DNA of 40,000 nucleotides from Amphritea japonica ATCC BAA-1530 (GTDB taxonomy: Bacteria; Pseudomonadota; Gammaproteobacteria; Pseudomonadales; Balneatricaceae), in the NCBI RefSeq assembly GCF_016592435.1, contig NZ_AP014545.1, positions 1,518,693 to 1,558,692 on the forward strand. Direction: 5' to 3'. Numbering within the stretch: position 1 is the first letter of the stretch; each line of letters starts with the position of its first letter. The position numbers and the translations under genes were made by a program. Shown piece after piece: positions 13,513-29,103 of the stretch. Below the pieces are notes generated by a model. The model was not told the DNA's origin. It searched no databases and worked only from the letters and a program-made list of their open reading frames with translations.

Positions 13513-13538
13513 AAACGCGCCTGAGGGCGCGTTTTTTT
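13513..13538. terminator. bidirectional terminator between phnA and intI
   Basis: AAACGCGCC-TGAG-GGCGCGTTT followed by a T7 run. On the other strand the A-run becomes a T-run after the intI stop. Confidence 0.6.
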
Positions 13539-14496
13539 ATAGTAAGTCTAACGGGCTGGACGTTCCCGCATAATGTTCGCCTATTACATGAGTGTAGATT
13601 TGAGTGGTTTTTACATCACTGTGACCTAGTAGTTCCTGTACGGTTCTTATATCCCTACCGGCCTCAAGCAAATGCGTTGCAAAAGAGTGTCGGAAGGTGT
13701 GGCAGCTCACCCGTTTGAATCGGATCTCAGTTTTAGTGAACGCCTGTTTAAGTGCTTTTCGTGGCGCCGAATTATGTAAATGATGCCGGCATAACTGCCC
13801 AGACAATGGATGCGGGCTCAGCGTGTTTGACGGGAAAAGATACATCCAGCCGGGTTGGCGAAAAGCGTTTGGGTATTTTCTACCAAGAGCAAAGGGCAAA
13901 GAAGGGCCAAGACCCTGGCTGTTGTCTTCTTGTTGGAGCTTTATCGCTTTAGACATTTGCGCCTCAATGGCTGGAAACAGACTTCGACTTAAAATTGTTT
14001 GTCGGTCTTTATTTCCTTTGCCGTCGCGTACTAATAAAGCACATCGTTCAAAACAGATATCCTGAAGGCGTAAGCGCAGACATTCAGTAATTCGAAGGCC
14101 GCTGCCGTATAGCAGCGAAATTATGAGTCTGTGACGGCCTTTCAATTGGCTCAGTACCGCATTAACTTCTGCTGGAGTTAAGACTACGGGAAGTCTCCTT
14201 GGGCGTTTTGCTTGCTTAAAACCCAGTTCACCTAGCTCAATTTTAAGTATTTTGTGGTACAAAAAAGCTAAGGCGTTCAGTGCTGTTTTTTGAGTATTAA
14301 TGGCGACATGTTGTTGGTTTGCCATCCAGGATAAAAATTCTTTAACCTGTACAGGGCCCATATCCGCGGGGTGCTTCTTATGATGAAAAAGGATATAGCG
14401 CTTGATCCACAAAAGATAAGTCTTTTCAGTGCGTATGCTATATCCGCGTAATCTAATCTCTTTGCGAACCTGTTCCAGAAAAGGACTTTTTGACAT
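13537..14496 (-). CDS. intI: integron integrase IntI (tyrosine recombinase)
   Basis: Start set at ATG 14496 (MSKSPFLEQVRKEIRLRGYS...), preceded by AAGGAGG. Catalytic residues are present: GLRITECLRLR, HTFRHSFATHLL, GHSDVKTTQIYTHV. The IntI-specific insertion (LSGQLCRHHLHNSAPRKALKQA) is also present. The track ORF reaching 14730 is an unlikely 78-aa extension. Confidence 0.9.
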   Translation of the reverse strand: MSKSPFLEQVRKEIRLRGYSIRTEKTYLLWIKRYILFHHKKHPADMGPVQVKEFLSWMANQQHVAINTQKTALNALAFLYHKILKIELGELGFKQAKRPRRLPVVLTPAEVNAVLSQLKGRHRLIISLLYGSGLRITECLRLRLQDICFERCALLVRDGKGNKDRQTILSRSLFPAIEAQMSKAIKLQQEDNSQGLGPSLPFALGRKYPNAFRQPGWMYLFPSNTLSPHPLSGQLCRHHLHNSAPRKALKQAFTKTEIRFKRVSCHTFRHSFATHLLEAGRDIRTVQELLGHSDVKTTQIYTHVIGEHYAGTSSPLDLL

Positions 14497-14518
14497 AAGA
14501 CACCTCCTTGTGAAGTTA

Positions 14519-14818
14519 TGTGCATCTGTATGTATATACAGTTTATTTTGTTCTGTCCAGCAGTTATGCTCAGTTTGTCGTTTTTGATAAGCGTGTTTTG
14601 TTACTTCAATGTGTAGCAAAACATTAAGAAAACAAAGGGATAGGTTAAAAACGCTGGCGGGATAGTGAGCCGGGTTAAGAATGCATATGCGCATTCTCGT
14701 TTTTGTCTTAAAGGAGATCGCGATGTTCAATAATTCCTCTTTATTATCTGATAGTTATCCTTCTTTTCATCAATTCTTCCTGGCATGCATGTGCGCCGGC
14801 GTAGTATTAAAATGTTAT
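14519..14818 (+). other. attI platform 1 (intI/cassette promoter region, leader, recombination core GTTAT at 14814-14818)
   Basis: This is the region between the intI start and the first cassette. It ends in AAAATGTTAT, whose GTTA matches the R' cores of the attC sites. It is duplicated colinearly at 26325-26626. Confidence 0.7.
14526..14541. promoter_or_regulatory. LexA (SOS) box in the intI promoter region
   Basis: CTGTATGTATATACAG matches CTGT-N8-ACAG exactly. It lies 30 bp upstream of the intI start codon. Confidence 0.65.
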
Positions 14819-14827
14819 ATGTTTTAG
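14723..14827 (+). CDS. attI leader small ORF (34 aa) reading across the recombination core
   Basis: AAAGGAGA lies 6 nt before the ATG. Translation: MFNNSSLLSDSYPSFHQFFLACMCAGVVLKCYMF. A homologous ORF sits at 26531-26626. Below the ORF-track size cutoff. Confidence 0.4.
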   Translation: MFNNSSLLSDSYPSFHQFFLACMCAGVVLKCYMF

Positions 14828-15051: not shown

Positions 15052-15054
15052 CAC

Positions 15055-15114
15055 ATATAACAAATCGCATAAGCAAGGACGCAGCAAGCTGCGCCGCTTA
15101 GCTTTGCGTTATGT
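15055..15114 (+). repeat. attC 1 (60 bp)
   Basis: R'' is ATATAAC and R' is GTTATGT. Inner arms AAATCGCATAAGCAAGG / GCTTAGCTTTGCG are imperfectly complementary. Confidence 0.8.
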
Positions 15115-15137
15115 ATTACCAGTTTCCGGAGTAATCA

Positions 15138-15539
15138 ATGAAGTGTGAAATCTGTGGAGAGAAAACGGGAATTAACTGGGGTGAAGGGAATACTGTTCTT
15201 TGCAAGAAGCATAGTGATAGAGCCAGTGAACTAGAGCCTTTTAAAAAAGCATCCCAAAAAGAAAATGAGGCAGAACATAAAAAGCAAGTTGAATTAGAAA
15301 AGAAGAAAACTAATTCTCCAAGTATGCTTCGGTGGAAGCTCTATGGCTCAATAATTATGTTTTGCTTGGTTGTAGTAGCCATTGCTACAGGAACCCTGTA
15401 CTTGCCAAGTAAGAGTGGTTTTTTATATAGAGGTGAAGATCCCGAAATGTTCTGGTCCATTACTGCATTTTGTTTTCTTTTGGCCTGCTATTCATCTTAT
15501 GAAGGCTATACGGGATTAAAAAAGCATAAAAATACATAA
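15138..15539 (+). CDS. cassette 2: zinc-ribbon-like N-terminus plus two C-terminal TM helices
   Basis: MKCEICGEKTGINWGEGNTVLCKKH (CxxC...CxxH), a Lys/Glu-rich linker, then TM helices. GGAG lies upstream. It is a paralogue of cassette 11. Confidence 0.6.
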   Translation: MKCEICGEKTGINWGEGNTVLCKKHSDRASELEPFKKASQKENEAEHKKQVELEKKKTNSPSMLRWKLYGSIIMFCLVVVAIATGTLYLPSKSGFLYRGEDPEMFWSITAFCFLLACYSSYEGYTGLKKHKNT

Positions 15540-15593
15540 CAAGACGCACAAGCAAGGACGCAGCAAGCTGCGCCGCTTAGCTTGGCGTTATGG
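15534..15593 (+). repeat. attC 2 (60 bp)
   Basis: R'' is ACATAAC (contains the stop codon) and R' is GTTATGG. The core GCAAGGACGCAGCAAGCTGCGCC is nearly identical to attC 1, 4 and 8. Confidence 0.8.
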
Positions 15594-15608
15594 CGCAAGG
15601 AGAGTTAA

Positions 15609-16190
15609 GTGCTAGTAGAGCATGCAGAAGACCTAGCTAGCTTTGTGAAGGAGCTTCAAAACGAAACCGATAGAGGTTTGCCGCTGGTTGGTGCAGCATT
15701 AATCGATGAAAAATTGCTGAATTCACTTGAATCATTTTTCGTTGAAGGCAAGTCTGCAAAGAAATTGCTTTCTTCCCCAAACGCACCGCTGGGAACATTC
15801 TCCTCAAGAATCGATGCTTGCTACAGTTTGGCTCTAATAGATAAATTTGAGTATCAAGAAATCGGATTAATCAGAAAAATTCGCAATGAATTTGCCCATG
15901 CTAAACACGGGATTTCATTTGAAAGTGAAAAAATAAAAGGGCTTTGTACAAGCCTTCAGTCACCTTTACCTGAAGAGGGAAATTACCCGGTAGGTACCTC
16001 TCGGTTTAGGTTAGTAAATTCCATAGTGTGTATTGTGTTACGCCTATACTATCGGCCGGAATGGGTGGCAAAAGAACGCCTAGAACCCAGAAGTTGGGTT
16101 CCAGACTCACGTTGGTACAACACAAATGAAAACCCACCACCTAAGAATGTTGGGTTCATGGGCTTGGTGCCAGAAAAGAATGAAGAGTAA
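15609..16190 (+). CDS. cassette 3: MtlR/YggD-like (mannitol-repressor fold) protein
   Basis: GTG start 6 nt after AAGGAG. The pattern NETDRGLPLVGAALIDEKL...PLGTFSSRIDACYSLALIDKFEYQEIGLIRKIRNEFAH resembles the MtlR/YggD family. Confidence 0.55.
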   Translation: MLVEHAEDLASFVKELQNETDRGLPLVGAALIDEKLLNSLESFFVEGKSAKKLLSSPNAPLGTFSSRIDACYSLALIDKFEYQEIGLIRKIRNEFAHAKHGISFESEKIKGLCTSLQSPLPEEGNYPVGTSRFRLVNSIVCIVLRLYYRPEWVAKERLEPRSWVPDSRWYNTNENPPPKNVGFMGLVPEKNEE

Positions 16191-16193
16191 GCA

Positions 16194-16274
16194 CCATAAC
16201 AAGGCACGCCACACTCGCCCGCGAGCGGGCTGGACTCGTCGCTTCGCTCCTCGCCTGTGCGCTGAGCGTTATGT
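16194..16274 (+). repeat. attC 3 (81 bp, GC-rich variant)
   Basis: R'' is CCATAAC and R' is GTTATGT. The internal sequence (CGCCCGCGAGCGGGC...) differs from the 60-bp class. Confidence 0.7.
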
Positions 16275-16305
16275 TTTTTTTACAGATCTAGCCAGGAATC
16301 ATGGA

Positions 16306-16677
16306 ATGAAGTTTATCTACGGGCTACTAGTAGCAACCCTCGTTATGTCACCCTTACTGGCTAGTGAAAGCGAAATCGAGACGAAGTACCATGCTTTCGG
16401 AATGGGTGTAACTAAATGTGTTGAAGTTAACGAAAACATCGAGAAAGAAGAATTTCAGTTCGTTTTAAAAGTATGGCTCACCGGGTACATGACAGCTGTT
16501 AATAGCATTTTAAATAAACACTCAATTGGTCTTAGTGGCCCCGATATTGGAAGGTCTATTGAAGCCATTCGTTCCTATTGCACTGTGCCGTCAAACGAAC
16601 AGGGTTCTATAAGTGAGGCAGCTGAAACATATTGGCGTGGGCGTATTAATGAAATGACGACAACAGTAGCCCAATAA
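16306..16677 (+). CDS. cassette 4: secreted/periplasmic protein of unknown function
   Basis: Start moved to ATG 16306; the track start at 16126 would translate attC 3. Signal peptide: MKFIYGLLVATLVMSPLLASE. Confidence 0.6.
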   Translation: MKFIYGLLVATLVMSPLLASESEIETKYHAFGMGVTKCVEVNENIEKEEFQFVLKVWLTGYMTAVNSILNKHSIGLSGPDIGRSIEAIRSYCTVPSNEQGSISEAAETYWRGRINEMTTTVAQ

Positions 16678-16694
16678 TTAGATGGTCCACAAAA

Positions 16695-16754
16695 ACATAA
16701 CAAGGCGCATAAGCAAGGACGCAGCAAGCTACGCCGCTTTGCTTGGCGTTAAGC
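16695..16754 (+). repeat. attC 4 (60 bp)
   Basis: R'' is ACATAAC and R' is GTTAAGC. Same core family as attC 1, 2 and 8. Confidence 0.8.
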
Positions 16755-16772
16755 CAATGAATAGAGAGATCG

Positions 16773-17708
16773 ATGAGTATTAAGCCAGATTGGAATGAAA
16801 TAGCTCTAAGGATTGGAGATGATCAAAGTCATGATGACTTGCATTCTGAATGGTCTAAAGAATGTAAGAAATGGTTAGAATCTATCGCCAGTGAATTTGG
16901 CAGCGATTATAGAATTGAAGAATCGCTAAACTTTTCGATTATGTCGAATGAAAGCGATCGGTATATTCATGTTTTTTCAGGCTTCTTAGAAAGAACATTA
17001 AAACGAATTTTAAGCACTCTTGAAGGAATTGCTTCCGACGAAGGATTTGGGAAGCATGTAGCATTAATCTTTCAAGATAGTGACCAATATTATGAATACG
17101 TTGGCATGTTCTTTCCTGATGAAGGGGAGTTCGGTCTTAGCTCAGGAATGTACATAAATGAAGGTTATGGTCATTTTGTATTTCCATCTCAAGATATAGA
17201 TTATGCTGAGCCAATTGCCGTTCATGAACTCACCCATGCTTGCTTGGTTCATCTGCCGATACCATTATGGCTAAATGAAGGCATGGCTGTTCTGATGGAA
17301 GATGTACTTGCAGGTAATCGCCTTTTTCTAGATAAAGAAATGGTTGAACGTCACCAAAGGTATTGGAATGAAGATACTATCCAAGATTTTTGGTCAGGCG
17401 AAAGCTTTATGGCAATTGATGAAGGTCAGGAGCTTAGCTATAACTTGGCTCACATTCTTGCGCGTAATATCTCCCAGGATTTTTCGGCTTTTGCAAAGTT
17501 CAGTAATCATGCAAATTACGAAGATGCAGGTGAGTCGGCAGCACAGGAATTCCTAGGCTTATCACTTACACAAATTGTTGGTTCGTTTCTCGGCGAGGGA
17601 AACTGGCAACCAGATGGTAGGCTTAACAAGGCGCTGCAACCGACTGCCAAAAGTGTCACTCGTTTTGCAAAAAGCCGCAAAATAAGCGCCACTTTTGTCA
17701 GCGGCTGA
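16773..17708 (+). CDS. cassette 5: putative zinc metallopeptidase (HExxH, peptidase-MA-like)
   Basis: 311 aa. It has AVHELTHACLVH followed by PLWLNEGMAVLMED, the gluzincin-type third-ligand motif. The last ~29 codons lie inside attC 5. Confidence 0.6.
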   Translation: MSIKPDWNEIALRIGDDQSHDDLHSEWSKECKKWLESIASEFGSDYRIEESLNFSIMSNESDRYIHVFSGFLERTLKRILSTLEGIASDEGFGKHVALIFQDSDQYYEYVGMFFPDEGEFGLSSGMYINEGYGHFVFPSQDIDYAEPIAVHELTHACLVHLPIPLWLNEGMAVLMEDVLAGNRLFLDKEMVERHQRYWNEDTIQDFWSGESFMAIDEGQELSYNLAHILARNISQDFSAFAKFSNHANYEDAGESAAQEFLGLSLTQIVGSFLGEGNWQPDGRLNKALQPTAKSVTRFAKSRKISATFVSG

Positions 17709-17722
17709 GCGCGGCGTTAGCT
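17621..17722 (+). repeat. attC 5 (102 bp)
   Basis: R'' is GCTTAAC and R' is GTTAGCT. Long arms: AAGGCGCTGCAACCGACTGCCAAAAGTG / CACTTTTGTCAGCGGCTGAGCGCGGC. Confidence 0.75.
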
Positions 17723-17735
17723 GTCTTAATAGAGT

Positions 17736-18044
17736 ATGAGCATGGATCAAGTTGTATCACCTAAAAAAGCATTAGCGCTATATCTAATCCCAGTTCTTTT
17801 TCTGGTGTATTTCGTGGCAGGCGCTTTCACTGGTGAAATAAGTGTTCCCGGTCGCAGCGACATTCTTAATATCCGTGGTGTGTCTGCTTGGTTAGCTTGT
17901 AGCTTTCCTGCATTATGGCTGGCAAGTGAAGTCATACGTCACGAGCAGCGGATTAAAATAGGCCCAAAATCACGCAAGATATTGGCCCCAATAATAATGG
18001 TTTTTGGTGTGAGTATATTTTTCTATGCAATATATAAAATGTAA
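17736..18044 (+). CDS. cassette 6: small membrane protein (3 predicted TM)
   Basis: 102 aa with hydrophobic helices LALYLIPVLFLVYFVAGAF, AWLACSFPALWLA and LAPIIMVFGVSIFFYAI. Confidence 0.55.
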   Translation: MSMDQVVSPKKALALYLIPVLFLVYFVAGAFTGEISVPGRSDILNIRGVSAWLACSFPALWLASEVIRHEQRIKIGPKSRKILAPIIMVFGVSIFFYAIYKM

Positions 18045-18056
18045 TCGTGCCAAAAC

Positions 18057-18125
18057 AGCTAACAAGGCAAGCCAGCGGACTCAAAAAAGCTTCGCTTTTT
18101 CGGTCCGCTGCTTTTGGCGTTATAC
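18057..18125 (+). repeat. attC 6 (69 bp)
   Basis: R'' is AGCTAAC and R' is GTTATAC. Arms: AAGGCAAGCCAGCGGAC / GTCCGCTGCTTTTGGC. Confidence 0.75.
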
Positions 18126-18138
18126 CTCAAGGACGGAT

Positions 18139-18627
18139 ATGAAAGTAATTCTGACTATTGTGTTAATTTTAACTTCAGGCGTTGTAAGTGCTGAGAGTTC
18201 TTTGCCTGATCTGGAGAAAACGATTAAGGCTGCAAACGGAGGTAACGTAATTGCTATGCACTATCTCTGTTATCAGTATCGGTATGGAGATGATTTTGAA
18301 GCAGACTATAAGAAAGCCGTTAAGTGGTGTGAAAAAACTGCTAAATCGGGAGATAGTGATGGCCAAACTCTCTATGCAGAGCTTCTTCAGTATGGTTTTG
18401 GCACGCCTGTAAATCTGGAAGGGTCAGTGAAGTGGTATCTCAAAGCAGCTGAACAGGACCATGTACATGCGTTATATATGCTTTTCTTTGCATATGCAGA
18501 AGGAATTTTTGTACAACAAGATTTTAATAAAGCGCACTATGTTCTAAAGAGGTCAGCTGATTTAGGTTATGAGAAAGCAAAAGAGCTTTTAAAAGAAATC
18601 GAAGACAGGACGAAAGCTAAGGTATAA
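18139..18627 (+). CDS. cassette 7: secreted Sel1-repeat (TPR-like) protein
   Basis: Start moved to ATG 18139; the track start at 18025 translates attC 6. Signal peptide MKVILTIVLILTSGVVSA, then repeated Sel1-like units (AMHYLCYQYRYG, AVKWCEKTAKSGDSDGQ, KWYLKAAEQDHVHA). Confidence 0.7.
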   Translation: MKVILTIVLILTSGVVSAESSLPDLEKTIKAANGGNVIAMHYLCYQYRYGDDFEADYKKAVKWCEKTAKSGDSDGQTLYAELLQYGFGTPVNLEGSVKWYLKAAEQDHVHALYMLFFAYAEGIFVQQDFNKAHYVLKRSADLGYEKAKELLKEIEDRTKAKV

Positions 18628-18677
18628 CAAGTAAAGTCAGCCGACCGCTAAAGCGTCGGCTGCTTTAAGCGTTATGC
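18622..18677 (+). repeat. attC 7 (56 bp)
   Basis: R'' is GTATAAC (contains the stop) and R' is GTTATGC. Arms: AAGTAAAGTCAGCCGAC / GTCGGCTGCTTTAAGC. Confidence 0.8.
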
Positions 18678-18689
18678 ATCATCAAAGGA

Positions 18690-19151
18690 ATGAATATGAA
18701 CGAAATATATAAAACACCTGCTAGTGATCTTTCTATCCAATCTGAAGGCACTATTCCCAAAAGACCCACCTCTGTAACCGCTTTAGGTTGGCTTTTTATA
18801 CTAGCAGGTATTCTCTACTTACCTTTTCTGTATAAATCCGGCCTGTTAACCGTTCAGGAAACAGCTCGAGGCAGCAAAATCTCAGTTAACCTTATTTGGA
18901 TCTTGCTTATTTGGAACGGTTATATGCTTCTTGTTGGTGGTAACATTTCCAGGTACTTTGCTGCGTTTTTTGGATTATTCGCTTTTGTACTACCAGCCAT
19001 TGCTGTCATATACATTTGCTTCATCAGTAACGCTAAAACTTTCTTCGCTAAAAAATCATGCCCGAGCTGTGGTCATAATAAATTTCGTGTTGGCAATCCT
19101 ATTGTTACTTCAATTCGTTGCCGAAAATGCAGCACAAAAGTTAAGGTCTAA
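18690..19151 (+). CDS. cassette 8: membrane protein with C-terminal zinc ribbon
   Basis: 153 aa with 3-4 TM helices, then CPSCGHNKF...CRKCSTKV. AAAGGA lies upstream. Confidence 0.55.
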   Translation: MNMNEIYKTPASDLSIQSEGTIPKRPTSVTALGWLFILAGILYLPFLYKSGLLTVQETARGSKISVNLIWILLIWNGYMLLVGGNISRYFAAFFGLFAFVLPAIAVIYICFISNAKTFFAKKSCPSCGHNKFRVGNPIVTSIRCRKCSTKVKV

Positions 19152-19152
19152 T

Positions 19153-19212
19153 GCATAACAAGGCGCACAAGCAAGGACACAGCAAGCTGCGCCGCTTTGC
19201 TTGGCGTTAGAT
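19153..19212 (+). repeat. attC 8 (60 bp)
   Basis: R'' is GCATAAC and R' is GTTAGAT. Same core family as attC 1, 2 and 4. Confidence 0.8.
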
Positions 19213-19228
19213 TGCAAAGGAACGCAAT

Positions 19229-19734
19229 ATGAGTAAGCCTAGCTTGAAGCCTTCTATAGAGCACTATCGAGGTATATTAAGGATGATTATCGGTGCAGGG
19301 TTGATAGGCCTTTTTTTTACTTTAGGGATTACGTAGACATTCCGTATTTGAGTGATTATTTGAACCAAAGAAGTGACTCTTTAAATCATAGGAATGGTTT
19401 AGCAAACGTTCTTGAAATTACATTAGATTTAATTATGGGTATTATCTGTGCATTAGGTTTGGATAGGGTATTAGTCCCTTTCCTCAAACCTCTATCCAGA
19501 AAGCAGAAAATCGAAATAATAACGGATGGAATTAGATACCTCTATACCAATGCGCATGCAGATATTTTATTTTCTGATATTGAGAAAGTTATAACTCGCT
19601 TAGAATCTGATGGTTCCATCGAAATATTCACAACTTCAGGCCAATTCATAGAGATAAAGCATTATACAAATATGGATCACTTGATTGAACATTTGGAACA
19701 AGGGCGGGTTCAAATTGAACAATCTAACAAGTAG
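19229..19734 (+). pseudogene. cassette 9: probably disrupted gene (35-aa TM ORF 19229-19336 plus out-of-frame 128-aa ORF 19348-19734)
   Basis: The SD-led ATG at 19229 gives MSKPSLKPSIEHYRGILRMIIGAGLIGLFFTLGIT and then TAG. The larger ORF starts 12 nt later in another frame, with TTG and no SD. Confidence 0.35.
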
Positions 19735-19779
19735 CTGTAGTGGATCGTCGCTACGCTCCTACTAAGCTAAGCGTTATAC
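19722..19779 (+). repeat. attC 9 (58 bp)
   Basis: R'' is ATCTAAC and R' is GTTATAC. The core AAGTAGCTGTAGTGGATCGTCGCT is nearly identical to the first attC of array 2. Confidence 0.8.
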
Positions 19780-19792
19780 CTAAGGGAAAGTT

Positions 19793-20305
19793 ATGCTCAA
19801 GGATATATATTTTCTTAATAGTCGAGGGCTCTCAGAAGAGCTTAAATCAGGGACGTTCTCAGAGGTTAGAGCTTTAAAACATTTGATTGTTACAGCAGTG
19901 ATAGGGCGGTTTTCATTTGAGTTTCCTGTTGAAATTGCTTTTTCTGAGTCTGAAATAAGTATGTGGAAGAGCTTGGCCTCACTATTAATACTAATAGTTT
20001 CAGGTGTTATTACTTACTATGGATTATGGCTAGCTTATCAGGCTAACGAAAAAGGAGACGGTAAAGATTTTTTCTTGAGATTAGCATCTTTAAGTTTACC
20101 AATTGGTCTCAAGCTTTTTATGTACTTTTTAGTTGCTGGGGTAGCTTTGGGTTTTACATCAACATTATTGATAAGCGGTTTAGGTTCGGTTGGTGCGGTA
20201 ATTACTGTGGTTGCAATGTTTGTAGCAACACTAGCGTTCTACTCACTTTTTTATCTTCAGCTAAGAAATCATATAGCTATAATATCCGGCTATGAAAAAG
20301 TATAA
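19793..20305 (+). CDS. cassette 10: polytopic membrane protein
   Basis: 170 aa with GGGAAAG upstream. Four hydrophobic helices follow a ~45-aa soluble N-terminus. Confidence 0.55.
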   Translation: MLKDIYFLNSRGLSEELKSGTFSEVRALKHLIVTAVIGRFSFEFPVEIAFSESEISMWKSLASLLILIVSGVITYYGLWLAYQANEKGDGKDFFLRLASLSLPIGLKLFMYFLVAGVALGFTSTLLISGLGSVGAVITVVAMFVATLAFYSLFYLQLRNHIAIISGYEKV

Positions 20306-20373
20306 CAAGTTGCAGTAGTTCGCCGCCTACGGCTGCGGACTCGCTATGCTCGCCGCAGTGCAAGGCGATATTT
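20300..20373 (+). repeat. attC 10 with mutated R' core (GATAT instead of GTTAT)
   Basis: R'' is GTATAAC. The site aligns along its length with attC 11, but ends AAGGCGATAT where attC 11 has AAGGCGTTAT. Confidence 0.65.
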
Positions 20374-20396
20374 CTCTCCAAAACTAGGTGCCAAGG

Positions 20397-20855
20397 ATGA
20401 AGTGTGACGTATGTGGTCGTTCAATCACTATAAACTGGGGTAACGAATTCGCCGTAGTTTGTGAAGAGCATACCAACCATATCACTAAACTCACCGATCT
20501 AAAGCGAAGCGCTGCTAAGGTGTGGACAGAGGGTACAGTCAAGTTTATCCCGGTTGAAGTTGATACTTCTGGTTCAAACTTGTTATCCGTATGGTGGGCT
20601 ATTACGTGGCGCTTCATGCTTATGTTAGTCGTTATTGGCGGTTTCCTCGGATTAATATTTTATCATTCTATGAACACGCTTATTGAACAGGAGATGCTTA
20701 CTACTGGCGTAGCAGAAACTATCGGAGTGATATTTTACCTAGTGATAGCAACTGCATTTATCTTTGTTGCTTTAGATAGAGTTATCGGGAAAAAAATAGG
20801 CAATGTCCGGTTGGTAATAGTTAGTGCTAAGGAATCTGACATTGAAGAAAAATAA
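20397..20855 (+). CDS. cassette 11: zinc-ribbon-like N-terminus plus C-terminal TM helices (paralogue of cassette 2)
   Basis: ATG 20397 follows AAGG; the track GTG at 20388 is less likely. MKCDVCGRSITINWGNEFAVVCEEH aligns with the cassette 2 N-terminus. Confidence 0.6.
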   Translation: MKCDVCGRSITINWGNEFAVVCEEHTNHITKLTDLKRSAAKVWTEGTVKFIPVEVDTSGSNLLSVWWAITWRFMLMLVVIGGFLGLIFYHSMNTLIEQEMLTTGVAETIGVIFYLVIATAFIFVALDRVIGKKIGNVRLVIVSAKESDIEEK

Positions 20856-20924
20856 CAAGTTACAGCGGTTCGCAGCCTGTGGCTGTCGGACTCGTTGCAC
20901 TCGCCGCTGTGTAAGGCGTTATAC
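20850..20924 (+). repeat. attC 11 (75 bp)
   Basis: R'' is AAATAAC and R' is GTTATAC. Same family as attC 10. Confidence 0.75.
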
Positions 20925-21013
20925 CTAAGGAAAAGTTATGCTTAGGGATGTGTTTTTTCTGAATAGTTTAGGCTAATCAGAAGAGCTTTAATCAGCGGAT
21001 TTCTCAGAGATTA
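20925..21013 (+). pseudogene. decayed remnant of a cassette-10-like cassette (array 1 end)
   Basis: CTAAGGAAAAGTTATGCTTAGGGATGTGTTTTTTCTGAATAG... parallels 19780-19870. It hits TAA after 12 codons, and the homology stops near 21013. Confidence 0.5.
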
Positions 21014-21046
21014 GAAAATCGTTGCTCAACTAGCTTGGAAAAATGA

Positions 21047-21071
21047 AGAGCGCTTAGACGCTCTTTTTTTT
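21047..21071 (+). terminator. rho-independent terminator closing array 1
   Basis: AGAGCG-CTTAGA-CGCTCT followed by a run of eight T. Confidence 0.6.
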
Positions 21072-21344
21072 CGCTCAAATATGAGAGTTTATTAGACTCT
21101 GTTGGTGCAATTTACAAGTAATGAGTAAGGTCTGGATGAAGTTGTTTTCTAATGCTTAACGACTATTCTTATTTCAAACTGTTGTTTTAATTTGCTCAGG
21201 CAAAGCACGGCATCGAGCAATATGCGTAACAGCTAAAGTGTTTTTGGCGAAGGGGTAGTGCTTATAGCGAGCTCTTGGATAAGAGTTTTATCGCTAATCG
21301 GACGAATCCCCTAAGTTTATCAACGACGATAGAGGGAGTTTGAT

Positions 21345-22895
21345 ATGTCTACGCTGAACAAACTACTGGGGTTCGCCAAACGATTACCTGGCGTTGCTAA
21401 GCTTGCTAATCGAATCGCATCTAATAAGTTAGCGTCAGCCACAACACCCCGGCCCCATAGCCATAGTTTGTGGTCGCCCCTCGATAAAGTTGATGCCTCG
21501 CCCAGTGAATATCTGACCTGGCATACGGTCACCGATAAAAACTACTTCGATCGTCATCTTGCCCCGGCTGATGATCGTTTTATGAATGCCTTACCATCAA
21601 ATGAGGGGACGACTGAATTCCCTTTCGGTGAGGTTACCGCCTTGTTTGAGCGAAAAGGTGGAATGAAGGAAGACCGTTCATCGGTCTTTTTTATGTTTGT
21701 TGCTCAATGGTTCACCGACGGTTTTTTCCGTTCCAGTCATATCGATTTCAGACAGACCACCTCCAACCATAACATCGACCTTGCCCAGATATATGGTTCT
21801 AACGAAGCGGTAGCACTGATGCTCCGCTCAGGGGAGGGCGGCAAGTTGCGTAGCCAGATGATAGGGGGTGAAGAGTATCCGGATTCTCTTGGCGAACTGG
21901 ATGAAAACGGTGTCTGGCAGGTAAAAGATCGTTATAAAAACCTACCTTACATCGCTGATAAAGAGTGGATGGAGTCTATTTTTGGTGGGTTAACTGACTC
22001 GCAGAAAGACAAGCTATTCGCGACAGGGCTGGAGAGGGGGAACTCAATTGTTGGGCATATGGTGATGAGTACCTTGTTTCTAAGGGAGCACAACGGTATC
22101 TGTGATCAGCTGGCTAGCCGAAATCCCGGTTGGGACGATGATCGGTTATTTCACACCGCGCGCATCATCAATACTGTCATCCTGATGAAACTCATTATCG
22201 AAGATTACGTTAACCATATCGCCGGTCTGGATGTTCTGGTGATGGATAATTCATTCGTTGAGAAACAGCAGTGGTACCGTACTCCCTGGATAGCGGCAGA
22301 ATTCAATCTGCTTTATCGCTGGCACGGCTTAGTACCTGATGCGCTAAAGGTTGCGGGCAGAGATGAGAGCCTCGTTAAAAACTTTGATCTGCTGATCAGG
22401 GAAGGCCTGAGCAGTCTGTTAGAAGCGGCAACATTGCAGGTGGCCGGTAAAATATCACTGGACAATGTCCCCGGATTTTTAATGCCCGCAGAGCAGGCGA
22501 TGATCAACAAAGGCCGGGACTGGCGGTTACGGTCTTTTAATGATTATCGCGTTCAGTTTGGTCTGTCCCGATTAGACTCGTTCGATCAGGTGACTGACGA
22601 TACTAATCTCAACGCAAGCCTTAAAAGACTCTATAGCGACATTGATAATCTGGAACTCACCGTAGGGTTGTTTGCAGAAGATGGAGGCAGCACGCTGACA
22701 GGCGAGCTACAGACCGCCATGGTGGCCTACGATGCGCTGACACAGATATATACGAATCCTTTACTGGCAAAGGAAAACTTCTGCGATAAGCACTTCACCG
22801 CTTACGGTATGGAGCGAATCGATGCCACGAAGTCGTTTCAGGATCTGGCTGATCGCAATACCAATCGACTGGTGAAGGTTAGTGTTAAGAGGTAG
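21345..22895 (+). CDS. haem peroxidase / cyclooxygenase-like fatty-acid oxygenase family protein
   Basis: 516 aa with AGAGGGAG upstream. FVAQWFTDGFF aligns with COX FAQHFTHQFF. NLLYRWHGLVPD aligns with COX LYHWHPLLPD (Tyr and proximal His). RSFNDYRVQFGL aligns with COX SFNEYRKRFGL. Confidence 0.75.
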   Translation: MSTLNKLLGFAKRLPGVAKLANRIASNKLASATTPRPHSHSLWSPLDKVDASPSEYLTWHTVTDKNYFDRHLAPADDRFMNALPSNEGTTEFPFGEVTALFERKGGMKEDRSSVFFMFVAQWFTDGFFRSSHIDFRQTTSNHNIDLAQIYGSNEAVALMLRSGEGGKLRSQMIGGEEYPDSLGELDENGVWQVKDRYKNLPYIADKEWMESIFGGLTDSQKDKLFATGLERGNSIVGHMVMSTLFLREHNGICDQLASRNPGWDDDRLFHTARIINTVILMKLIIEDYVNHIAGLDVLVMDNSFVEKQQWYRTPWIAAEFNLLYRWHGLVPDALKVAGRDESLVKNFDLLIREGLSSLLEAATLQVAGKISLDNVPGFLMPAEQAMINKGRDWRLRSFNDYRVQFGLSRLDSFDQVTDDTNLNASLKRLYSDIDNLELTVGLFAEDGGSTLTGELQTAMVAYDALTQIYTNPLLAKENFCDKHFTAYGMERIDATKSFQDLADRNTNRLVKVSVKR

Positions 22896-22910
22896 AAGTA
22901 AAACCCTGGG

Positions 22911-22961
22911 GCGTTGTTCGAACGTCACAAAAAAACGTGACTTGCTCGTCGCTCGAAAAAG
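22911..22961 (+). repeat. family-2 repeat, Y module (unit A)
   Basis: GCGTTGTTCGAACGTCAC-AAAAAAAC-GTGACTTGCTCGTCGCTCGAAAAAG. It is nearly identical to 26236-26283. Confidence 0.7.
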
Positions 22962-22995
22962 CCCTCAAAAACCAACTTTAACACCTAAAAATATC

Positions 22996-23080
22996 ACCAC
23001 AGAGAACACCGAGAGCACGGAGAAGGACCGTTAACTAGCCTCTATCCGCTTTTCTCTGTGCTCTCTGTGTCCTCGGTGGT
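22996..23080. repeat. 85-bp imperfect hairpin (29-nt arms)
   Basis: ACCACAGAGAACACCGAGAGCACGGAGAA pairs with TTCTCTGTGCTCTCTGTGTCCTCGGTGGT. By hand count 25 of 29 positions are complementary, with a 27-nt loop. Confidence 0.6.
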
Positions 23081-23147
23081 AAAAGCTCTGAAGTAGCGGC
23101 TGGATGATCTGTTATCCTATGCGCTTCCCTCAAATAACAGCCAATCT

Positions 23148-24152
23148 ATGATGAGACGATCTTTTTTACCCCCCTGGTGGGCAAAGAACCCACATGTGCA
23201 GACGATTTTACCTGTGCTCACTAAGGTTGAATCCCCGGCACTTTCCCGCCAACGCCTGGAATTAGGTGATGGTGATTTTATCGATCTTGATTGGTTAGGT
23301 GACCCCCATAACGCCGGTAGCATTGTTGTTATTATGCATGGGCTGGAAGGTAGCTCTGATTCCCACTATATACGACGCTTACTGCAAGATTGTAATCGCC
23401 ATGGTTTATGCGCGGTTGTGCATCACCATCGGGGCTGTTCGGGTGAGCCGAACCGTTTAGCCCGCAGTTATCATAGTGGCGATACGCAAGATATTAGTGA
23501 CACCTTGGCGTACCTTAAAGAGCATTTCCCTCAAGCAAAACTGTGCGCTGTGGGTTATAGCTTAGGGGGGAATGTGTTGACTAAATATCTGGGCGAGATG
23601 CAGAGTGATAGCACCATAGACCGTGCGGTTGTTGTCTCGGCCCCACTGCAGTTATCAGCCTGTGCCAAGCGATTAGAAAAGGGGTTTTCGACTCTTTACC
23701 AATGGCATCTGATTAAGCAGCTTCGAGATAAACTCACCGATAAATTTAATCATCGAACCATTGTCGATCAAGCATCGGTGACGCCGAAGCAAGTCAGTAC
23801 ACTGAAAACGTTTTATCAATTTGATCACCGGGTGACTGCGCCACTGCATGGCTTCGAGGGTGTTGATGATTACTATGCTAAAGCCAGTGGATTTAGTTAT
23901 TTGGCGAAGATTGACCGACCAACGTTAGTCATACATGCCGCTGATGATCCGTTCATGAATGCAGACGTAATCCCATCAGCTAACCAGTGCTCCGCAGATG
24001 TAACCTATGAACTGCATCAACAGGGTGGTCATGTCGGCTTTATTGACGGTGGTTCTCCACTAAAACCACGCTACTATTTAGAACAACGTATTATTCATTT
24101 TCTGACGATAAATAAAGCTGTAGCTAGTGATGAAGCAATCGCTAGTGGTTAG
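23148..24152 (+). CDS. alpha/beta-fold hydrolase, YheT/ABHD1-3-like
   Basis: 334 aa. N-terminal FLPPWWAKNPHVQTILP, then HGLEGSS, the nucleophile elbow GYSLGGN, and late D (AADDPF) and H (GGHVGF). Confidence 0.8.
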   Translation: MMRRSFLPPWWAKNPHVQTILPVLTKVESPALSRQRLELGDGDFIDLDWLGDPHNAGSIVVIMHGLEGSSDSHYIRRLLQDCNRHGLCAVVHHHRGCSGEPNRLARSYHSGDTQDISDTLAYLKEHFPQAKLCAVGYSLGGNVLTKYLGEMQSDSTIDRAVVVSAPLQLSACAKRLEKGFSTLYQWHLIKQLRDKLTDKFNHRTIVDQASVTPKQVSTLKTFYQFDHRVTAPLHGFEGVDDYYAKASGFSYLAKIDRPTLVIHAADDPFMNADVIPSANQCSADVTYELHQQGGHVGFIDGGSPLKPRYYLEQRIIHFLTINKAVASDEAIASG

Positions 24153-24219
24153 ACGTAGCTTCGCTACTTGCCAGAACGTCGCTACGCGACTCGCTAGGAA
24201 AAGATTAAAAGCCGTAAAC
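24141..24219 (+). repeat. family-2 repeat, X module (unit B)
   Basis: GCTAGTGGTTAGAC-[GTAGC TTC GCTAC]-TTGCCAGAAC-[GTCGC TAC GCGAC]-TCGCTAGGAAAAGATTAAAAGCCGTA. It overlaps the hydrolase stop codon. Confidence 0.7.
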
Positions 24220-24240
24220 TGTAAATAAAGGCAGGACTCA

Positions 24241-24648
24241 ATGAAAGAGATCACACGAATTAATCATGTAGGGCTTCGGGTTAGAGATTTAGATACCGCT
24301 AGAAAATTCTACGAGCAACTCGGATTTAAATTCATTGCAGGTCCGGTTGGTCCAGAGCCTGCGGCTATCGTTGAGCACCCATCAGGTATCAATATCAATT
24401 TCATTCTCAACGCATCTGATGATGCTCCGGAAGATAATATTCTAATGAAACAGGATATAAAATATCCTGGCTATACACATATCGCGTTGGAGATAACTGA
24501 CGCAGAGGTCGTGTCTAAGAAAATTGAAGAGCTGGGAATAACAATCACTGAACGGGTAGAGATTAATGGTGCAAAATTCTTCTTTATCAGAGACCCGGAC
24601 GATAACGTCATAGAGCTTCATCAGGCCTCAAATAAGAGCAGTAGCTAG
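24241..24648 (+). CDS. VOC/glyoxalase-family protein
   Basis: 135 aa. INHVGLRVRDLDTARKFYEQLGF ... HIALEI ... FFIRDPDDNVIELH is the typical glyoxalase I fold signature. Confidence 0.8.
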   Translation: MKEITRINHVGLRVRDLDTARKFYEQLGFKFIAGPVGPEPAAIVEHPSGININFILNASDDAPEDNILMKQDIKYPGYTHIALEITDAEVVSKKIEELGITITERVEINGAKFFFIRDPDDNVIELHQASNKSSS

Positions 24649-24738
24649 TGGTTAGACGTGGCTTCGCCACTTGCTAGAACGTCGCAATGCGACTGCTAGG
24701 GAAAGACTAAAAGCCGTAGCGCGTTGTTCGATCGTCAC
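24644..24738 (+). repeat. family-2 repeat, X module plus partial Y (unit C)
   Basis: GCTAGTGGTTAGAC-[GTGGC TTC GCCAC]-TTGCTAGAAC-[GTCGC AAT GCGAC]-TGCTAGGGAAAGACTAAAAGCCGTAGCGCGTTGTTCGATCGTCAC. Confidence 0.7.
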
Positions 24739-24762
24739 ATTCACATGGGATATTAAGTCAGA

Positions 24763-25446
24763 ATGATCAAGCACAACGTTCTCAATAACCTGTTCCAAGG
24801 AAAGGTAAAGCAAAGCTTTGGGCTAGAGACAGGGATGGAGAAATCGCCTGTGGAAGGGGATATTTACCTATCTATTGAAGGCCTGGAAGGTGACGCCTGT
24901 GCGGATAAAAATCACCATGGTGGCTTAGAGCGTGCCCTTCATCAGTATCCATCTGAACACTACAAATATTGGTGCAAGCGATATGGGACAGGGTTTCAAT
25001 GGCATGCGCCGGGCATGGGAGAGAATCTTAGCTCTACGGGTATGACAGAGCAGAACGTTTGCATCGGCGATCGTTTTAGCTGGGGTGATGCGGTTATTGA
25101 GATAAGCCAGCCTCGCTCTCCCTGCTATAAACTCAATACACGGTGGGGTATAGAAGACTTTTCTATCCATATGCAGGAGATCAGTCGATGCGGGTGGTTG
25201 TATCGAGTGATCGAGCCCGGAATAGTCAATGTTGATAAGCCGCTTCGGCTGATTGAGCGGGTCCCTGACGCGCTAACCGTTCGTCAGGTATGTGATATCT
25301 ACTTCGGCAACCCACTCGATCAAGAGGGCTTGTGTAAACTAAAACAGCAAACGAGATTGTCTGATAGCTGGATGCAAAAAGTTGTCCAGCGTATAGACAC
25401 AGGTGAAGTTGAAAACTGGAATTTTCGATTATTGGGCCACGCTTAA
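24763..25446 (+). CDS. MOSC-domain protein (YiiM-like)
   Basis: 227 aa. GDACADKNHHGGLERALHQYPSEHYKYW and ISQPRSPCYKLN (conserved Cys) are typical of the MOSC/YiiM family. Confidence 0.8.
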   Translation: MIKHNVLNNLFQGKVKQSFGLETGMEKSPVEGDIYLSIEGLEGDACADKNHHGGLERALHQYPSEHYKYWCKRYGTGFQWHAPGMGENLSSTGMTEQNVCIGDRFSWGDAVIEISQPRSPCYKLNTRWGIEDFSIHMQEISRCGWLYRVIEPGIVNVDKPLRLIERVPDALTVRQVCDIYFGNPLDQEGLCKLKQQTRLSDSWMQKVVQRIDTGEVENWNFRLLGHA

Positions 25447-25487
25447 TCGTTCAACATGAGTTGCGTGCGAAGATTTGGAGCAGAAGC

Positions 25488-25590
25488 CAGTGGTTAGACG
25501 TGGCTACGCCACTTGCTAGAACGTCGCTACGTGACTGCTAGGGAAAGATTAAAAGCCGTAGCTCGTTGTTCGAATGTCGCTAAGCGACAT
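25488..25590 (+). repeat. family-2 repeat, X module plus variant Y (unit D)
   Basis: CAGTGGTTAGAC-[GTGGC TAC GCCAC]-TTGCTAGAAC-[GTCGC TAC GTGAC]-TGCTAGGGAAAGATTAAAAGCCGTAGCTCGTTGTTCGA-[ATGTCGC TAA GCGACAT]. Confidence 0.7.
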
Positions 25591-25599
25591 GATAGGCAT

Positions 25600-26118
25600 T
25601 TAGGTCGGTGCTTTGTTATCTGCGCTTGATTTTTCGGCTAATAAATCCAAATAACCCTTATCCAGGCCTTTTCTTGAAAGGTAGTTAGTACCGCCCTTAT
25701 GGATGACTATAAAACCTTTCTCAGTGGTCTTTAATTCATCAATATCGTTCCAGAGGATACTTTGCTGGTGGTGAGCGCTGTCGCTATAGATACCCTGATC
25801 ATCAATCCGAATATTGACCCGGCTACCGGCCCTGCGACTAAGCATTTGACGGGTTACCCACCAACCGCGTTTATAGCGAATAGATAGCAGTTCAACAGCG
25901 CAGAGGGCGAGTAGAAACCATGCAATATAGGGGTCAGACTCTTGGGCAAAAAACACACCGGCGAGAATGACCAGTATTATCACCTGACGGTATGTTTTGA
26001 GGCTGAGAGTAGTATTCGCAGATTCGTCAAAGCACTCAATGAAGTATTCACGATTGAGGATATAGTAGCTGCTCTGATCTGTACTGGTGCTGCTGTTAGG
26101 GTGGGCGGTGTCTGTCAT
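25600..26118 (-). CDS. YcxB-like membrane protein
   Basis: 172 aa. Two TM helices (VIILVILAGVFFA, IAWFLLALCAVELL), then a soluble domain with ILWNDIDELKTTEKGFIVIH. It is the only minus-strand gene in the island. Confidence 0.5.
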   Translation of the reverse strand: MTDTAHPNSSTSTDQSSYYILNREYFIECFDESANTTLSLKTYRQVIILVILAGVFFAQESDPYIAWFLLALCAVELLSIRYKRGWWVTRQMLSRRAGSRVNIRIDDQGIYSDSAHHQQSILWNDIDELKTTEKGFIVIHKGGTNYLSRKGLDKGYLDLLAEKSSADNKAPT

Positions 26119-26214
26119 ACTCTGGCCTGGCGATGTAAGGACAATGTTGTAGGAACGCTAGTGTAGCAAATCTGGCAAATGAAGCTTGATTAGTTAAAGG
26201 GCTCTAATCGATTT

Positions 26215-26283
26215 AGTCTTTAAAAGCCGTAGCTCATTGTTCGAACGTCACAAAAAGCGTGACTTGCTCGTTGTTCGAAAAAG
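26215..26283 (+). repeat. family-2 repeat, X tail plus full Y module (unit E)
   Basis: AGTCTTTAAAAGCCGTAGCTCATTGTTCGAACGTCAC-AAAAAGC-GTGACTTGCTCGTTGTTCGAAAAAG. It directly abuts attI platform 2. Confidence 0.7.
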
Positions 26284-26333
26284 TAATTGTCAAAAGTATC
26301 AATTCTCCAGTACTGTTATAGTTAGTGCATAGC

Positions 26334-26349
26334 TTGTATGTATAAACAG
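26334..26349. promoter_or_regulatory. relic LexA-box-like sequence
   Basis: TTGTATGTATAAACAG has one mismatch to CTGT-N8-ACAG. It is positionally equivalent to the box at 14526-14541, with a 3-nt insertion immediately upstream. Confidence 0.35.
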
Positions 26350-26530
26350 TTTATTTTGCATATAGCAGTAGTTATGCTCGTTTTATCGTTAGACAAAGGC
26401 TCGTTTTGCTGCTTATAAGTTTTGCAAAACTGAAGAAATACAAAGGGATAGGTATAAAACGCTGGTGAGATACTGCGCCAGGTAAAGAATGCATATGCGC
26501 ATTCTCGTTTTTGTCTTAAAGGAGATCACG

Positions 26531-26626
26531 ATGTTCAGTAATTCCCTTCTAAGATCAGATAGTTATCACCCCTTTTGTGACTTTAGCTCGGCATGCATAT
26601 GCGCCGGCCTAGTATTAAAATGTTAA
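26531..26626 (+). CDS. attI leader small ORF, copy 2 (31 aa), stop codon inside the GTTAA core
   Basis: Same SD (AAAGGAGA) and spacing as copy 1. Translation: MFSNSLLRSDSYHPFCDFSSACICAGLVLKC. 20 of 31 residues are identical to copy 1, with no gaps. Confidence 0.4.
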   Translation: MFSNSLLRSDSYHPFCDFSSACICAGLVLKC

Positions 26627-26646
26627 ATGTCTAAAATGGATCTCAG

Positions 26647-28945: not shown

Positions 28946-29035
28946 TTCTAACAAAGAAAAAGAAGAGAAAAAAGGGCAAATTTATTCGTTGTCCCCTCTC
29001 TCTTCACAACCCACAGAACCAAAGCTTTTTCTAGC
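28946..29035 (+). repeat. terminal, degenerate attC-like sequence (R'' present, no recognisable R')
   Basis: It starts TTCTAAC-AAAG like the other attC sites and has complementary arms GAAGAGAAAAAAGGG / CCCCTCTCTCTTC. No GCGTTA-type end is present; it runs into family-2 unit F. Confidence 0.35.
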
Positions 29036-29093
29036 AAGCGACGAAGTCGCGTCTAACCACTAGCTAGCCGCGAAGCGGCGGTCTAGCTGCTGA
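29030..29093 (-). repeat. family-2 repeat, X-like module in inverted orientation (unit F)
   Basis: The reverse complement reads GCTAGAC-[CGCCGC TTC GCGGC]-TAGCTAGTGGTTAGAC-[GCGAC TTC GTCGC]-TTGCTAGAA. Confidence 0.65.
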
Positions 29094-29103
29094 CCTTAAA
29101 AAA

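Follow-up and report, generated by a model that had tools for sequence, protein, structure and literature searches.

A putative genus-specific family of REP-like extragenic hairpin repeats at gene junctions beside an integron of Amphritea japonica

Repetitive extragenic palindromes (REPs) of E. coli have long been proposed to protect mRNA 3' ends and to bring about differential expression within operons, and the BOX element of Streptococcus pneumoniae, built as boxA-(boxB)n-boxC, is intergenic, is transcribed with its neighbours and has no transposase of its own. Bertels and Rainey are said to have described REPINs, in 2011, as inverted doublets of REPs linked to the RAYT gene that they flank. 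Super-families of REPs and bacterial interspersed mosaic elements (BIMEs), tagged GTAG and CGTC, have been documented (Di Nocera et al. 2013, PMC3733652); according to that article, the CGTC REPs have no dedicated transposase, stems of 8-9 bp and loops of 4-5 nt, and their dimers are predominantly head-to-head, head-to-tail dimers being negligible. Here we analyse a 40-kb stretch of the 3.83-Mb genome of Amphritea japonica (G000; the other G-numbers are related genomes of the same genus), called the window throughout, in which an island of chromosomal genes lies between two integron arrays. A sequence-only reading of this DNA had noticed two structured repeat modules, X and Y, at the gene junctions between 22.9 and 26.3 kb, and had hesitated between a second class of integron recombination sites, a REP/REPIN-like element and a structured transcript element. 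From comparisons within the genome and across the genus, we consider it highly probable that X and Y belong to a genome-wide REP-like family and not to a class of recombination sites.

The modules lie where they had been reported: all five internal gene junctions of the 22.9-26.3 kb island carry one, and the remark that the core regions of the window hold no copy was borne out, none being found in the 40 kb beyond the island set and the inverted element F. The elements are as follows, with scores in bits under R1, a covariance model of the family unit.

22912-22961, plus strand: Y-type element that follows the haem-peroxidase gene, with GTTCGAAC as head, GTCAC-A7C-GTGAC as hairpin and TTGCTCGTCGCTCGAAAAAG as tail (17.1 bits)
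24141-24219, plus strand: X element B; head-to-tail units GTAGC-TTC-GCTAC and GTCGC-TAC-GCGAC, tail GCTAGGAAAAGATTAAAAGCC (40.1 and 21.9 bits)
24644-24720, plus strand: X element C; GTGGC-TTC-GCCAC, GTCGC-AAT-GCGAC and tail (44.2 bits)
24721-24738, plus strand: partial Y head (its first 18 nt), directly 3' of X element C
25486-25562, plus strand: X element D; GTGGC-TAC-GCCAC, GTCGC-TAC-GTGAC (one G.T) and tail (42.9 bits)
25563-25590, plus strand: Y variant adjoining X element D; hairpin ATGTCGC-TAA-GCGACAT (14.9 bits)
26220-26283, plus strand: X tail TTAAAAGCCGTAGC and a full Y-type element (Y at 26234-26283; 17.0 bits)
29024-29089, minus strand: X element F, inverted; head-to-tail units CGCCGC-TTC-GCGGC and GCGAC-TTC-GTCGC, tail GCTAGAAAAAGC (43.2 and 19.1 bits)
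21016-21045, plus strand: AAATCGTTGCTCAACTAGCTTGGAAAAATG, a degenerate unit or tail of the family, where the truncated last cassette of array 1 meets the island; weak, with no R1 match

Judged by their sequence, X and Y are variants of one modular family and not two separate modules as first thought. In 20 copies read in context, an element begins with the head (A)GTRGCTAGA(A)C, continues with hairpin units, between one and four of them, arranged head to tail, and ends in an A-rich tail. A unit opens with the linker (G)CTAGA(A)C; next come the first arm of a 4-7 bp stem, free in sequence, a TNC loop and the second arm, and TTGCTAG closes it; joints between units read TTGCTAG(TGGYTAG)A(A)C and the tail reads TTGCTAG(TGGCTAG)AAAAAGCRTAAAAGCC, its A-rich part being TTGCTAGTGGCTAGAAAAAGCRTAAAAGCC. 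X corresponds to two such units plus a tail. Y is a unit with an A-rich loop, in whose linkers TCG or TTG stands where the family has TAG, and folding predicts for it an outer 7-bp stem pairing the head TTCGAAC with the tail GTTCGAA. The fixed parts of each unit are the CTAG linkers and the TNC triloop with its closing C-G pair; the inner part of the stem, 3-5 pairs long, varies in sequence but keeps its complementarity.

We counted units with a strict pattern, consisting of [TC]AGA(A)[CT], a 4-7 bp stem, a TNC loop, the matching stem and (T)TGCTAG, which returned 90 units at 64 loci in G000, whereas the reversed genome gave 3. Some 38 different stem pairs are represented among the 90 units, with an invariant closing C-G pair and the loops TTC (45), TGC (26), TAC (17) and TCC (2), pairing statistics that are inflated in units chosen for pairing. 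The unbiased test is a selection on the flanks only, in which pairing is not required: it gave a bimodal result, 54 sites being paired at 5/5 positions and 15 at 4/5, compared with 0.1% and 1.4%, respectively, of random 13-mers. The same flank selection, applied to 869 kb of loci from other Amphritea genomes, yielded 179 units with full pairing and 24 with a single mismatch; 17 distinct stems were counted. Separation from the background needs both flanks and the TNC loop, as a loose scan for a hairpin plus linker behaved like its displaced controls. The compensatory stem changes noted in the island (GTAGC/GCTAC in B, GTGGC/GCCAC in C and D, GCGAC/GTCGC in F) are real, but they are a property of the whole family. 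In G016, the closest relative compared, the orthologue of the first unit of B reads GTAGC..GCCAC, a one-sided intermediate between GTGGC/GCCAC and GTAGC/GCTAC.

The idea that the modules are confined to the island did not survive a genome-wide search. A single X copy used as query located its first half at more than 25 other places, and a short-word BLAST brought out further copies of Y; both recur throughout the 3.83 Mb, and of the 88 strict units retained, only 6 have an attC site or attI platform within 3 kb, the other 93% being farther away. The R1 model matched 105 times in G000. It also matched in 17 of the 23 other genomes compared from this GTDB genus; 37 genomes that represent as many other genera of the family and order gave no match. 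Family units per genome range from 0 to at least about 110, counts that are lower bounds in the richest genomes (at most 118 candidates per genome were scored). An exact-pattern scan of a species collection returned, among the matches listed, only Amphritea records and one Oceanospirillales metagenome-assembled genome, and a literature search found no account of these repeats. The REP/REPIN-like alternative is therefore upheld by dozens of extragenic copies genome- and genus-wide, though not as regards a cognate RAYT or inverted doublets; similarly, the mark proposed for an ordinary REP, hundreds of scattered copies, fits the intergenic scatter across the genome but not the count, which is about 100.

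The position of the elements relative to genes is strongly biased. Using crude gene calls (open reading frames (ORFs) of at least 100 aa, with 87% of the genome coding), every one of the 88 retained units falls between genes. Of 32 clusters in convergent spacers, 28 are closer to the stop of the gene whose orientation they share (median 39 nt) than to the other gene (185 nt); of 25 in tandem spacers, 20 point the same way as the upstream gene, and 16 of these start at -2 to 55 nt from its stop. Most elements are in sense orientation, 0-60 nt past a stop codon, and some supply the stop codon themselves. Neighbouring units are arranged head to tail in 25 cases and convergently in one. A terminator, defined as a hairpin followed by a T-run, lies within 110 nt downstream of 19 of 67 clusters as compared with 25 of 400 random intergenic windows; the family hairpins themselves are followed by TTGCTAG and the A-rich tail, not by a T-run, and thus do not qualify as intrinsic terminators. 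No Rfam 15 family matched anywhere in the window at the gathering threshold.

The island reproduces this family-wide position and polarity exactly, in the order hydrolase-X-glyoxalase-X-MOSC-X, on one strand and with short spacers. The hydrolase stop codon (TAG, 24150-24152) lies inside the head of X element B and that of the glyoxalase-family gene (TAG, 24646-24648) inside the head of X element C, so that the reported overlap of X with upstream stop codons, which recalls attC sites and speaks for a recombination-site class, holds for these two genes; it fails for the MOSC gene, whose stop codon lies 40 nt before X element D. The last 12 codons of the hydrolase (AVASDEAIASG; window 24117-24152) consist of two copies of the head motif, GTAGCTAGTG/GCTAGTGG, in the frame that avoids TAG, and the hydrolase of G017 ends in ...AVASG; repeat sequence has therefore been absorbed into the coding region.

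We compared the modules with attC sites using a second covariance model, R2, made from the window's 14 attC sites and run with filters off on both strands; it is a local model, not that of IntegronFinder. The 14 attC sites score 33-63 bits in the window, and over X and Y, on either strand, nothing rose above noise, the best nearby score being 9.1 bits (E 3.6). Across the genome, R2 found attC sites only in the window and at 1958.9-1961.9 kb, 1940-1941.6 kb, 3117.5 kb and 2348.2 kb. A canonical attC site forms one long imperfect hairpin with RYYYAAC as inverse core at its 5' end and GTTRRRY as core at its 3' end, occurs once per cassette in arrays beside attI/intI or in CALINs, and is recombined by IntI as a folded bottom strand with extrahelical bases. 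As the sequence-only reading had pointed out, X presents its motifs in the order GTT...AAC, opposite to that of attC, and the attC boxes R''/L''..L'/R' (AAC...GTT) are missing. The GTTAGAC of X does fit GTTRRRY, but incidentally: this fit occurs in 11 of 82 distinct units, CTAGA stands there in 58 of the 82, and the consensus is GCTAGAC.

The other features of the window that matter here are listed below.

13537-14730, minus strand: intI, with Phage_integrase and SAM-like domains, then attI
15054 to 20928: attC sites of array 1 of the integron, which follows attI
21345-22895: haem peroxidase gene, the first of five ordinary genes in the island
23148-24152: alpha/beta hydrolase gene, island
24241-24648: glyoxalase-family gene, island
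24763-25446: MOSC protein gene, island
25600-26118, minus strand: YcxB-like protein gene, island
26366-26630: second copy of the attI region, 78% identical to 14558-14822, heading a short second array
29170: ubiT, past the end of array 2

In G016, the stretch 21040-26283 is present in the same order at 89% identity. To its left lie a fatty-acid desaturase gene and, in place of the degenerate unit at 21016-21045, an intact unit (GTGGC-TTC-GCCAC, GGCTAGAAAATG) before a shared terminator, with no integron; in the window, a repeat designated D5 ends at 21015. To its right, synteny stops within the Y tail of the element at 26220-26283, and Y is followed by one further family hairpin and then by a cassette array with five attC matches, for which no attI platform was found and no IntI was detectable in the assembly. 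That this platform-less array begins right after Y is a point for recombination at the element, as is the situation in G017, where X, Y and a cassette-bearing platform without integrase come straight after the hydrolase gene and the locus has no glyoxalase, MOSC or YcxB gene. The island genes do vary between species; homologues of the MOSC gene, however, occur in G010 and G007 with no adjoining element. The island is, by this comparison, the conserved left neighbour of the second array and not a set of cassettes, and what is peculiar to G000 is intI with array 1 on its other side. The proposal that the genes between repeats behave as independent cassettes must be abandoned, and the 22.9-26.3 kb region read as normal chromosomal sequence containing REP-like 3' elements, a block preserved in a relative that has no detectable integrase.

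Several features of these genes and spacers deserve mention in their own right. The intI ORF as listed has 397 aa from a TTG, some 70 N-terminal residues preceding the SAM-like domain, and an ATG at 14525 is out of frame; the true start probably lies further in than this TTG, because the 5' part of the ORF overlaps the region common to integrase-less platforms. An 85-bp hairpin with CACAGAGA arms in the peroxidase/hydrolase spacer (22996-23080) is also a dispersed repeat, found again at G000:C1 2817251-2817342 and around 2634440-2634480, adjoining family units; its orthologue in G016 has a 9-nt deletion in the left arm. The desaturase gene of G016 lies directly upstream of the cyclooxygenase-like haem peroxidase and hydrolase genes (G016:C21 8.6-10 kb, L156/L168), its G000 orthologue being at 2.90 Mb, and the three may form an oxylipin-type gene cluster. 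In G017 (C3, ~362.9-363.6 kb; L157 840-1480), the spacer between an ABC-2 permease gene and the hydrolase gene holds about seven tandem copies of a repeat of about 100 nt, CCTCGTTCCCACGCTCCTGCGTGGTAATGCAGACGGAA....

Comparison of G000 with G016 also shows how the elements change. Within the island, the Y at 22912-22961 is kept with a 1-nt indel in the loop and X element C differs by a single base, while the tail of X element D and the adjoining Y variant are missing, a different hairpin standing there. X element F, which sits between the end of array 2 and ubiT, was not found upstream of the G016 ubiT, where homology begins at about window position 29095. Among 10 other orthologous spacers, four retain the element with point changes or an indel of the 7-nt linker, five hold different units or orientations, and one has an element in G000 only. 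Since these spacers are partly kept and partly replaced, the family combines conservation at its sites with turnover. Comparison of the two genomes, whose genes flanking these spacers are 76-92% identical and whose spacers are largely unalignable, revealed no clean example of an empty site with target duplication. At several of the five differently occupied sites of G016 (L174, L179, L180, L182), Y-type units stand beside long (CAACGAG)n runs; read on the other strand, these repeat the Y-type linker CTCGTTG, so that slippage seems to be what lengthens the 7-nt linker.

Taken as a whole, these observations are probably best explained by Amphritea-restricted, REP/BOX-like hairpins of 3' untranslated regions (3' UTRs) and intercistronic spacers that act at the RNA level. 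Given their sense orientation and their closeness to stop codons, the elements are expected to be transcribed, within 3' UTRs or intercistronic spacers, together with the upstream gene. The hairpin array would then act on the transcript, either as a barrier to 3'-5' decay or as a processing or pausing signal, and in this way set the upstream gene's relative expression; the compensatory changes would follow from selection on pairing, and arrays would change by unit duplication and by slippage of the 7-nt linker. The RNA-level mechanism as such, suggested by position and orientation, we hold only tentatively, at a little under an even chance. The structured-transcript alternative of the sequence-only reading is compatible with all this, and sense orientation and post-stop position favour it.

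Several observations weigh against hairpins acting in RNA, besides the inflated pairing statistics of the strict units. Firstly, folding z-scores range from 0 to -2.7 for DNA and RNA on both strands, which is thermodynamically unremarkable and of low predicted stability; the structure therefore rests on covariation only. Secondly, single stem mismatches read on the sense strand are A.C rather than G.T, by 9 to 2 in G000 and by 11 to 7 in the other genomes; if real, the A.C excess suggests, for G000 only, that pairing takes place on the opposite strand. Thirdly, the opposite-strand loop reads GNA closed by C-G, and a GNA triloop closed by C-G forms an exceptionally stable DNA minihairpin; such a loop would suit an enzyme reading single-stranded DNA and argues against a purely RNA-level account. 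Fourthly, 10 clusters, including the Y at 26234, lie in divergent spacers.

These points lead to the strongest alternative, a non-autonomous mobile element resembling a REP or a MITE (a miniature transposable element with inverted repeats). A trans-acting enzyme would recognise the CTAG linkers and the triloop on single-stranded DNA, the stems would be free in sequence as only their shape is read, and any effect on RNA would be a by-product. This is compatible with the RNA-level explanation, but we think it unlikely as the principal one. In its favour, copy number across the genus is patchy, from 0 to at least 110, as expected from lineage-specific bursts; orthologous G000 and G016 spacers hold different units or orientations; and the stable bottom-strand loop goes with the summed top-strand mismatches, 20 A.C against 9 G.T. 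CGTC REPs likewise lack a dedicated transposase (PMC3733652). What speaks against it is that no transposase tracks the family, that units are joined head to tail and not as inverted doublets, that no clean empty/filled site with target duplication was seen, and that there is no replication-strand bias (50 to 38) beyond that of the genes.

The transposase evidence is as follows. G000 has four Y1_Tnp matches, one of which is a classical RAYT, of 148 aa (985612-986058), flanked on both sides by a different REP, GTAGGAGCNGTGCCCNCACGGCGA (GTAGGAGC..CACGGCGA), in alternating orientation; GTAGGAGC/GCTCCTAC words number about 78 in this genome. For a Y1-like gene of 256 aa (2031791-2032558), there is an X copy at a distance of about 670 bp, but family members do not flank it. 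In the 24 genomes compared, the occurrence of the family matches that of neither gene: G016, with 62 units, has neither, G013 and G023 lack the RAYT, and G003, G008 and G014 lack the Y1-like gene. We consequently rejected the RAYT as the cognate transposase of the family, as it is flanked by another REP and the phyletic patterns do not match. We also rejected the family elements as ends of a MITE with a conserved centre, the centre not being repeated at the level of BLAST; only TTGTAAGAAAGTTGT recurs after Y-type units. As a separate observation, the 256-aa gene, of IS200-type fold, has a truncated second copy 1.2 kb away (2031791-2033700), both copies are bounded by ATCAATGACTCTGACCCTATTGATTTT-type repeats, and a motif similar to ATCAATGACTCTGACCCTATTGATTTT occurs upstream of ubiT in G016 (L213 820-850).

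A further connection is with the attI platforms. A search of the genus with window 26330-26640, Y excluded, found five platform copies joined to intI and about 25 that are integrase-less; other Amphritea genomes have up to eight platform matches each. G000 has five integrase-less platforms, the window copy and the following four on C1:

1962309-1962603, minus strand: integrase-less platform
3116745-3117033, plus strand: integrase-less platform
2626536-2626795, minus strand: integrase-less platform
2629475-2629652, minus strand: integrase-less platform

Two or more of these orphan platforms in G000 are followed by attC sites, five at 1958.9-1961.9 kb and one at 3117.5 kb. The left edge of every platform copy carries a CTGT-N8-ACAG palindrome, CTGTATGTATATACAG (window 14526-14541 and 26333-26350), which we take to resemble the LexA/SOS box of an intI promoter and which is kept where there is no intI to regulate.

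A family element lies 50-130 nt upstream of this LexA-box-like edge in 22 of 25 integrase-less copies from 11 genomes, with at least four types of spacer, a count in which many copies are related by descent and are not independent observations. In G000, this is so for all five of the five integrase-less platforms, against a base rate of 64 loci in ~2700 spacers. The three platforms without an element are one truncated copy and the copies of G020 and G022, genomes that hold 0 and 2 units. The element at 26220-26283 abuts the second, integrase-less platform of the window, and the same junction occurs in G017, G013, G021 and G005. Elsewhere, Y-type units often have a 75-nt extension ending in TTGTAAGAAAGTTGT, and in one class of orphan platforms this extension runs into the platform. 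All three junctions between integron and other DNA in the window lie at family elements, namely the degenerate one at ~21016-21045, 26283 and 29024-29089. As dispersed repeats, the elements would also act as rearrangement break points, which would account for their presence at such junctions.

The association may reflect shared descent of a module made of element, spacer and platform, rearrangement between dispersed repeats, or a preference of the repeats for that spot. A stronger version would tie the family mechanistically to the spread of integrase-less platforms, the Y-type element, a ~75-nt spacer and the platform, starting at its LexA-box edge, being copied or relocated as one unit, by repeat-mediated recombination or by a hairpin-reading enzyme. 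We regard this as distinctly unlikely; if true, one IntI would serve several docking sites seeded beside repeats, and the repeats would help a sedentary chromosomal integron to multiply its platforms. In any case, repeats at the upstream edge of orphan platforms and at integron junctions bear on how chromosomal integrons rearrange.

Alternatively, a chromosomal protein, such as gyrase, a nucleoid protein or a regulator, could bind the elements as DNA by reading the CTAG linkers, as reported for BIMEs. The unpaired CTAG linkers, and not the stems, are indeed the most conserved part, and they repeat with a 7-nt period (GCTAGTG GCTAGAA). A strand-neutral site, however, does not predict the bias for sense orientation and post-stop position, a duplex site needs no stem complementarity, and Y-type copies with CTCG or TTCG in place of CTAG persist and multiply, which makes this account very unlikely.

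That X and Y are instead a second class of integron recombination sites, or are otherwise used by IntI, with the genes between them as cassettes and the elements recruiting or moving attI platforms, is hardly credible, for although overlapped stop codons, the platform association and the arrangements in G016 and G017 could be read that way, the attC model is silent on both strands, some 300 nt separate the attI crossover point from the element, which sits at the platform's intI-proximal edge and is therefore not a usual recombination junction, G003 has at least about 110 units and no platform, G020 and G022 have platforms without the element, and G016 maintains its units with no detectable IntI.

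Returning to the REP-like reading, we can now place the family among described systems. With attC sites it shares imperfect palindromes lying after or over an upstream stop codon and variable stems with conserved ends; it differs from them in a hairpin of 13 nt as against 57-100 nt, in its lack of any score under the attC model and in its genome-wide spread. Like REPINs, it consists of REP-type hairpins forming within-genome families, thought of as non-autonomous mobile DNA, but its doublets are direct and no RAYT is flanked by it or co-distributed with it. The analogy with BOX is one of design, a modular element with a fixed head, variable tandem internal units and a fixed tail, intergenic and with no transposase of its own; there is no sequence relation, and the Amphritea units are far shorter (~27-32 nt), each forming one small hairpin. 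As for REPs proper, the family is a high-copy extragenic palindrome, with 90-105 units, all intergenic, and lacks the tags: AGA(A)C precedes the stem, GTAG occurs only in some heads, 8-10 nt upstream, and CGTC occurs only where a stem happens to begin with GTC. Inverted dimers and the flanking of a RAYT are likewise missing. Compared with the CGTC REPs, its stems are shorter (4-7 bp, mostly 5), its loop has 3 nt, and its units stand head to tail by 25 to 1. With fixed linkers and triloop, a free stem, direct arrays and no cognate RAYT, it is a clean REP-like case, convenient for asking what is recognised in such repeats. REPs and BIMEs remain the nearest kind: short GC-rich extragenic hairpins in about 100 or more copies, downstream of coding regions and plausibly transcribed, lying mostly between unidirectional and convergent genes, specific to a species or genus, and divided into sub-families that differ in stem, loop or tail. 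The Amphritea elements would thus represent a new, genus-specific family of REP-like extragenic hairpin repeats.

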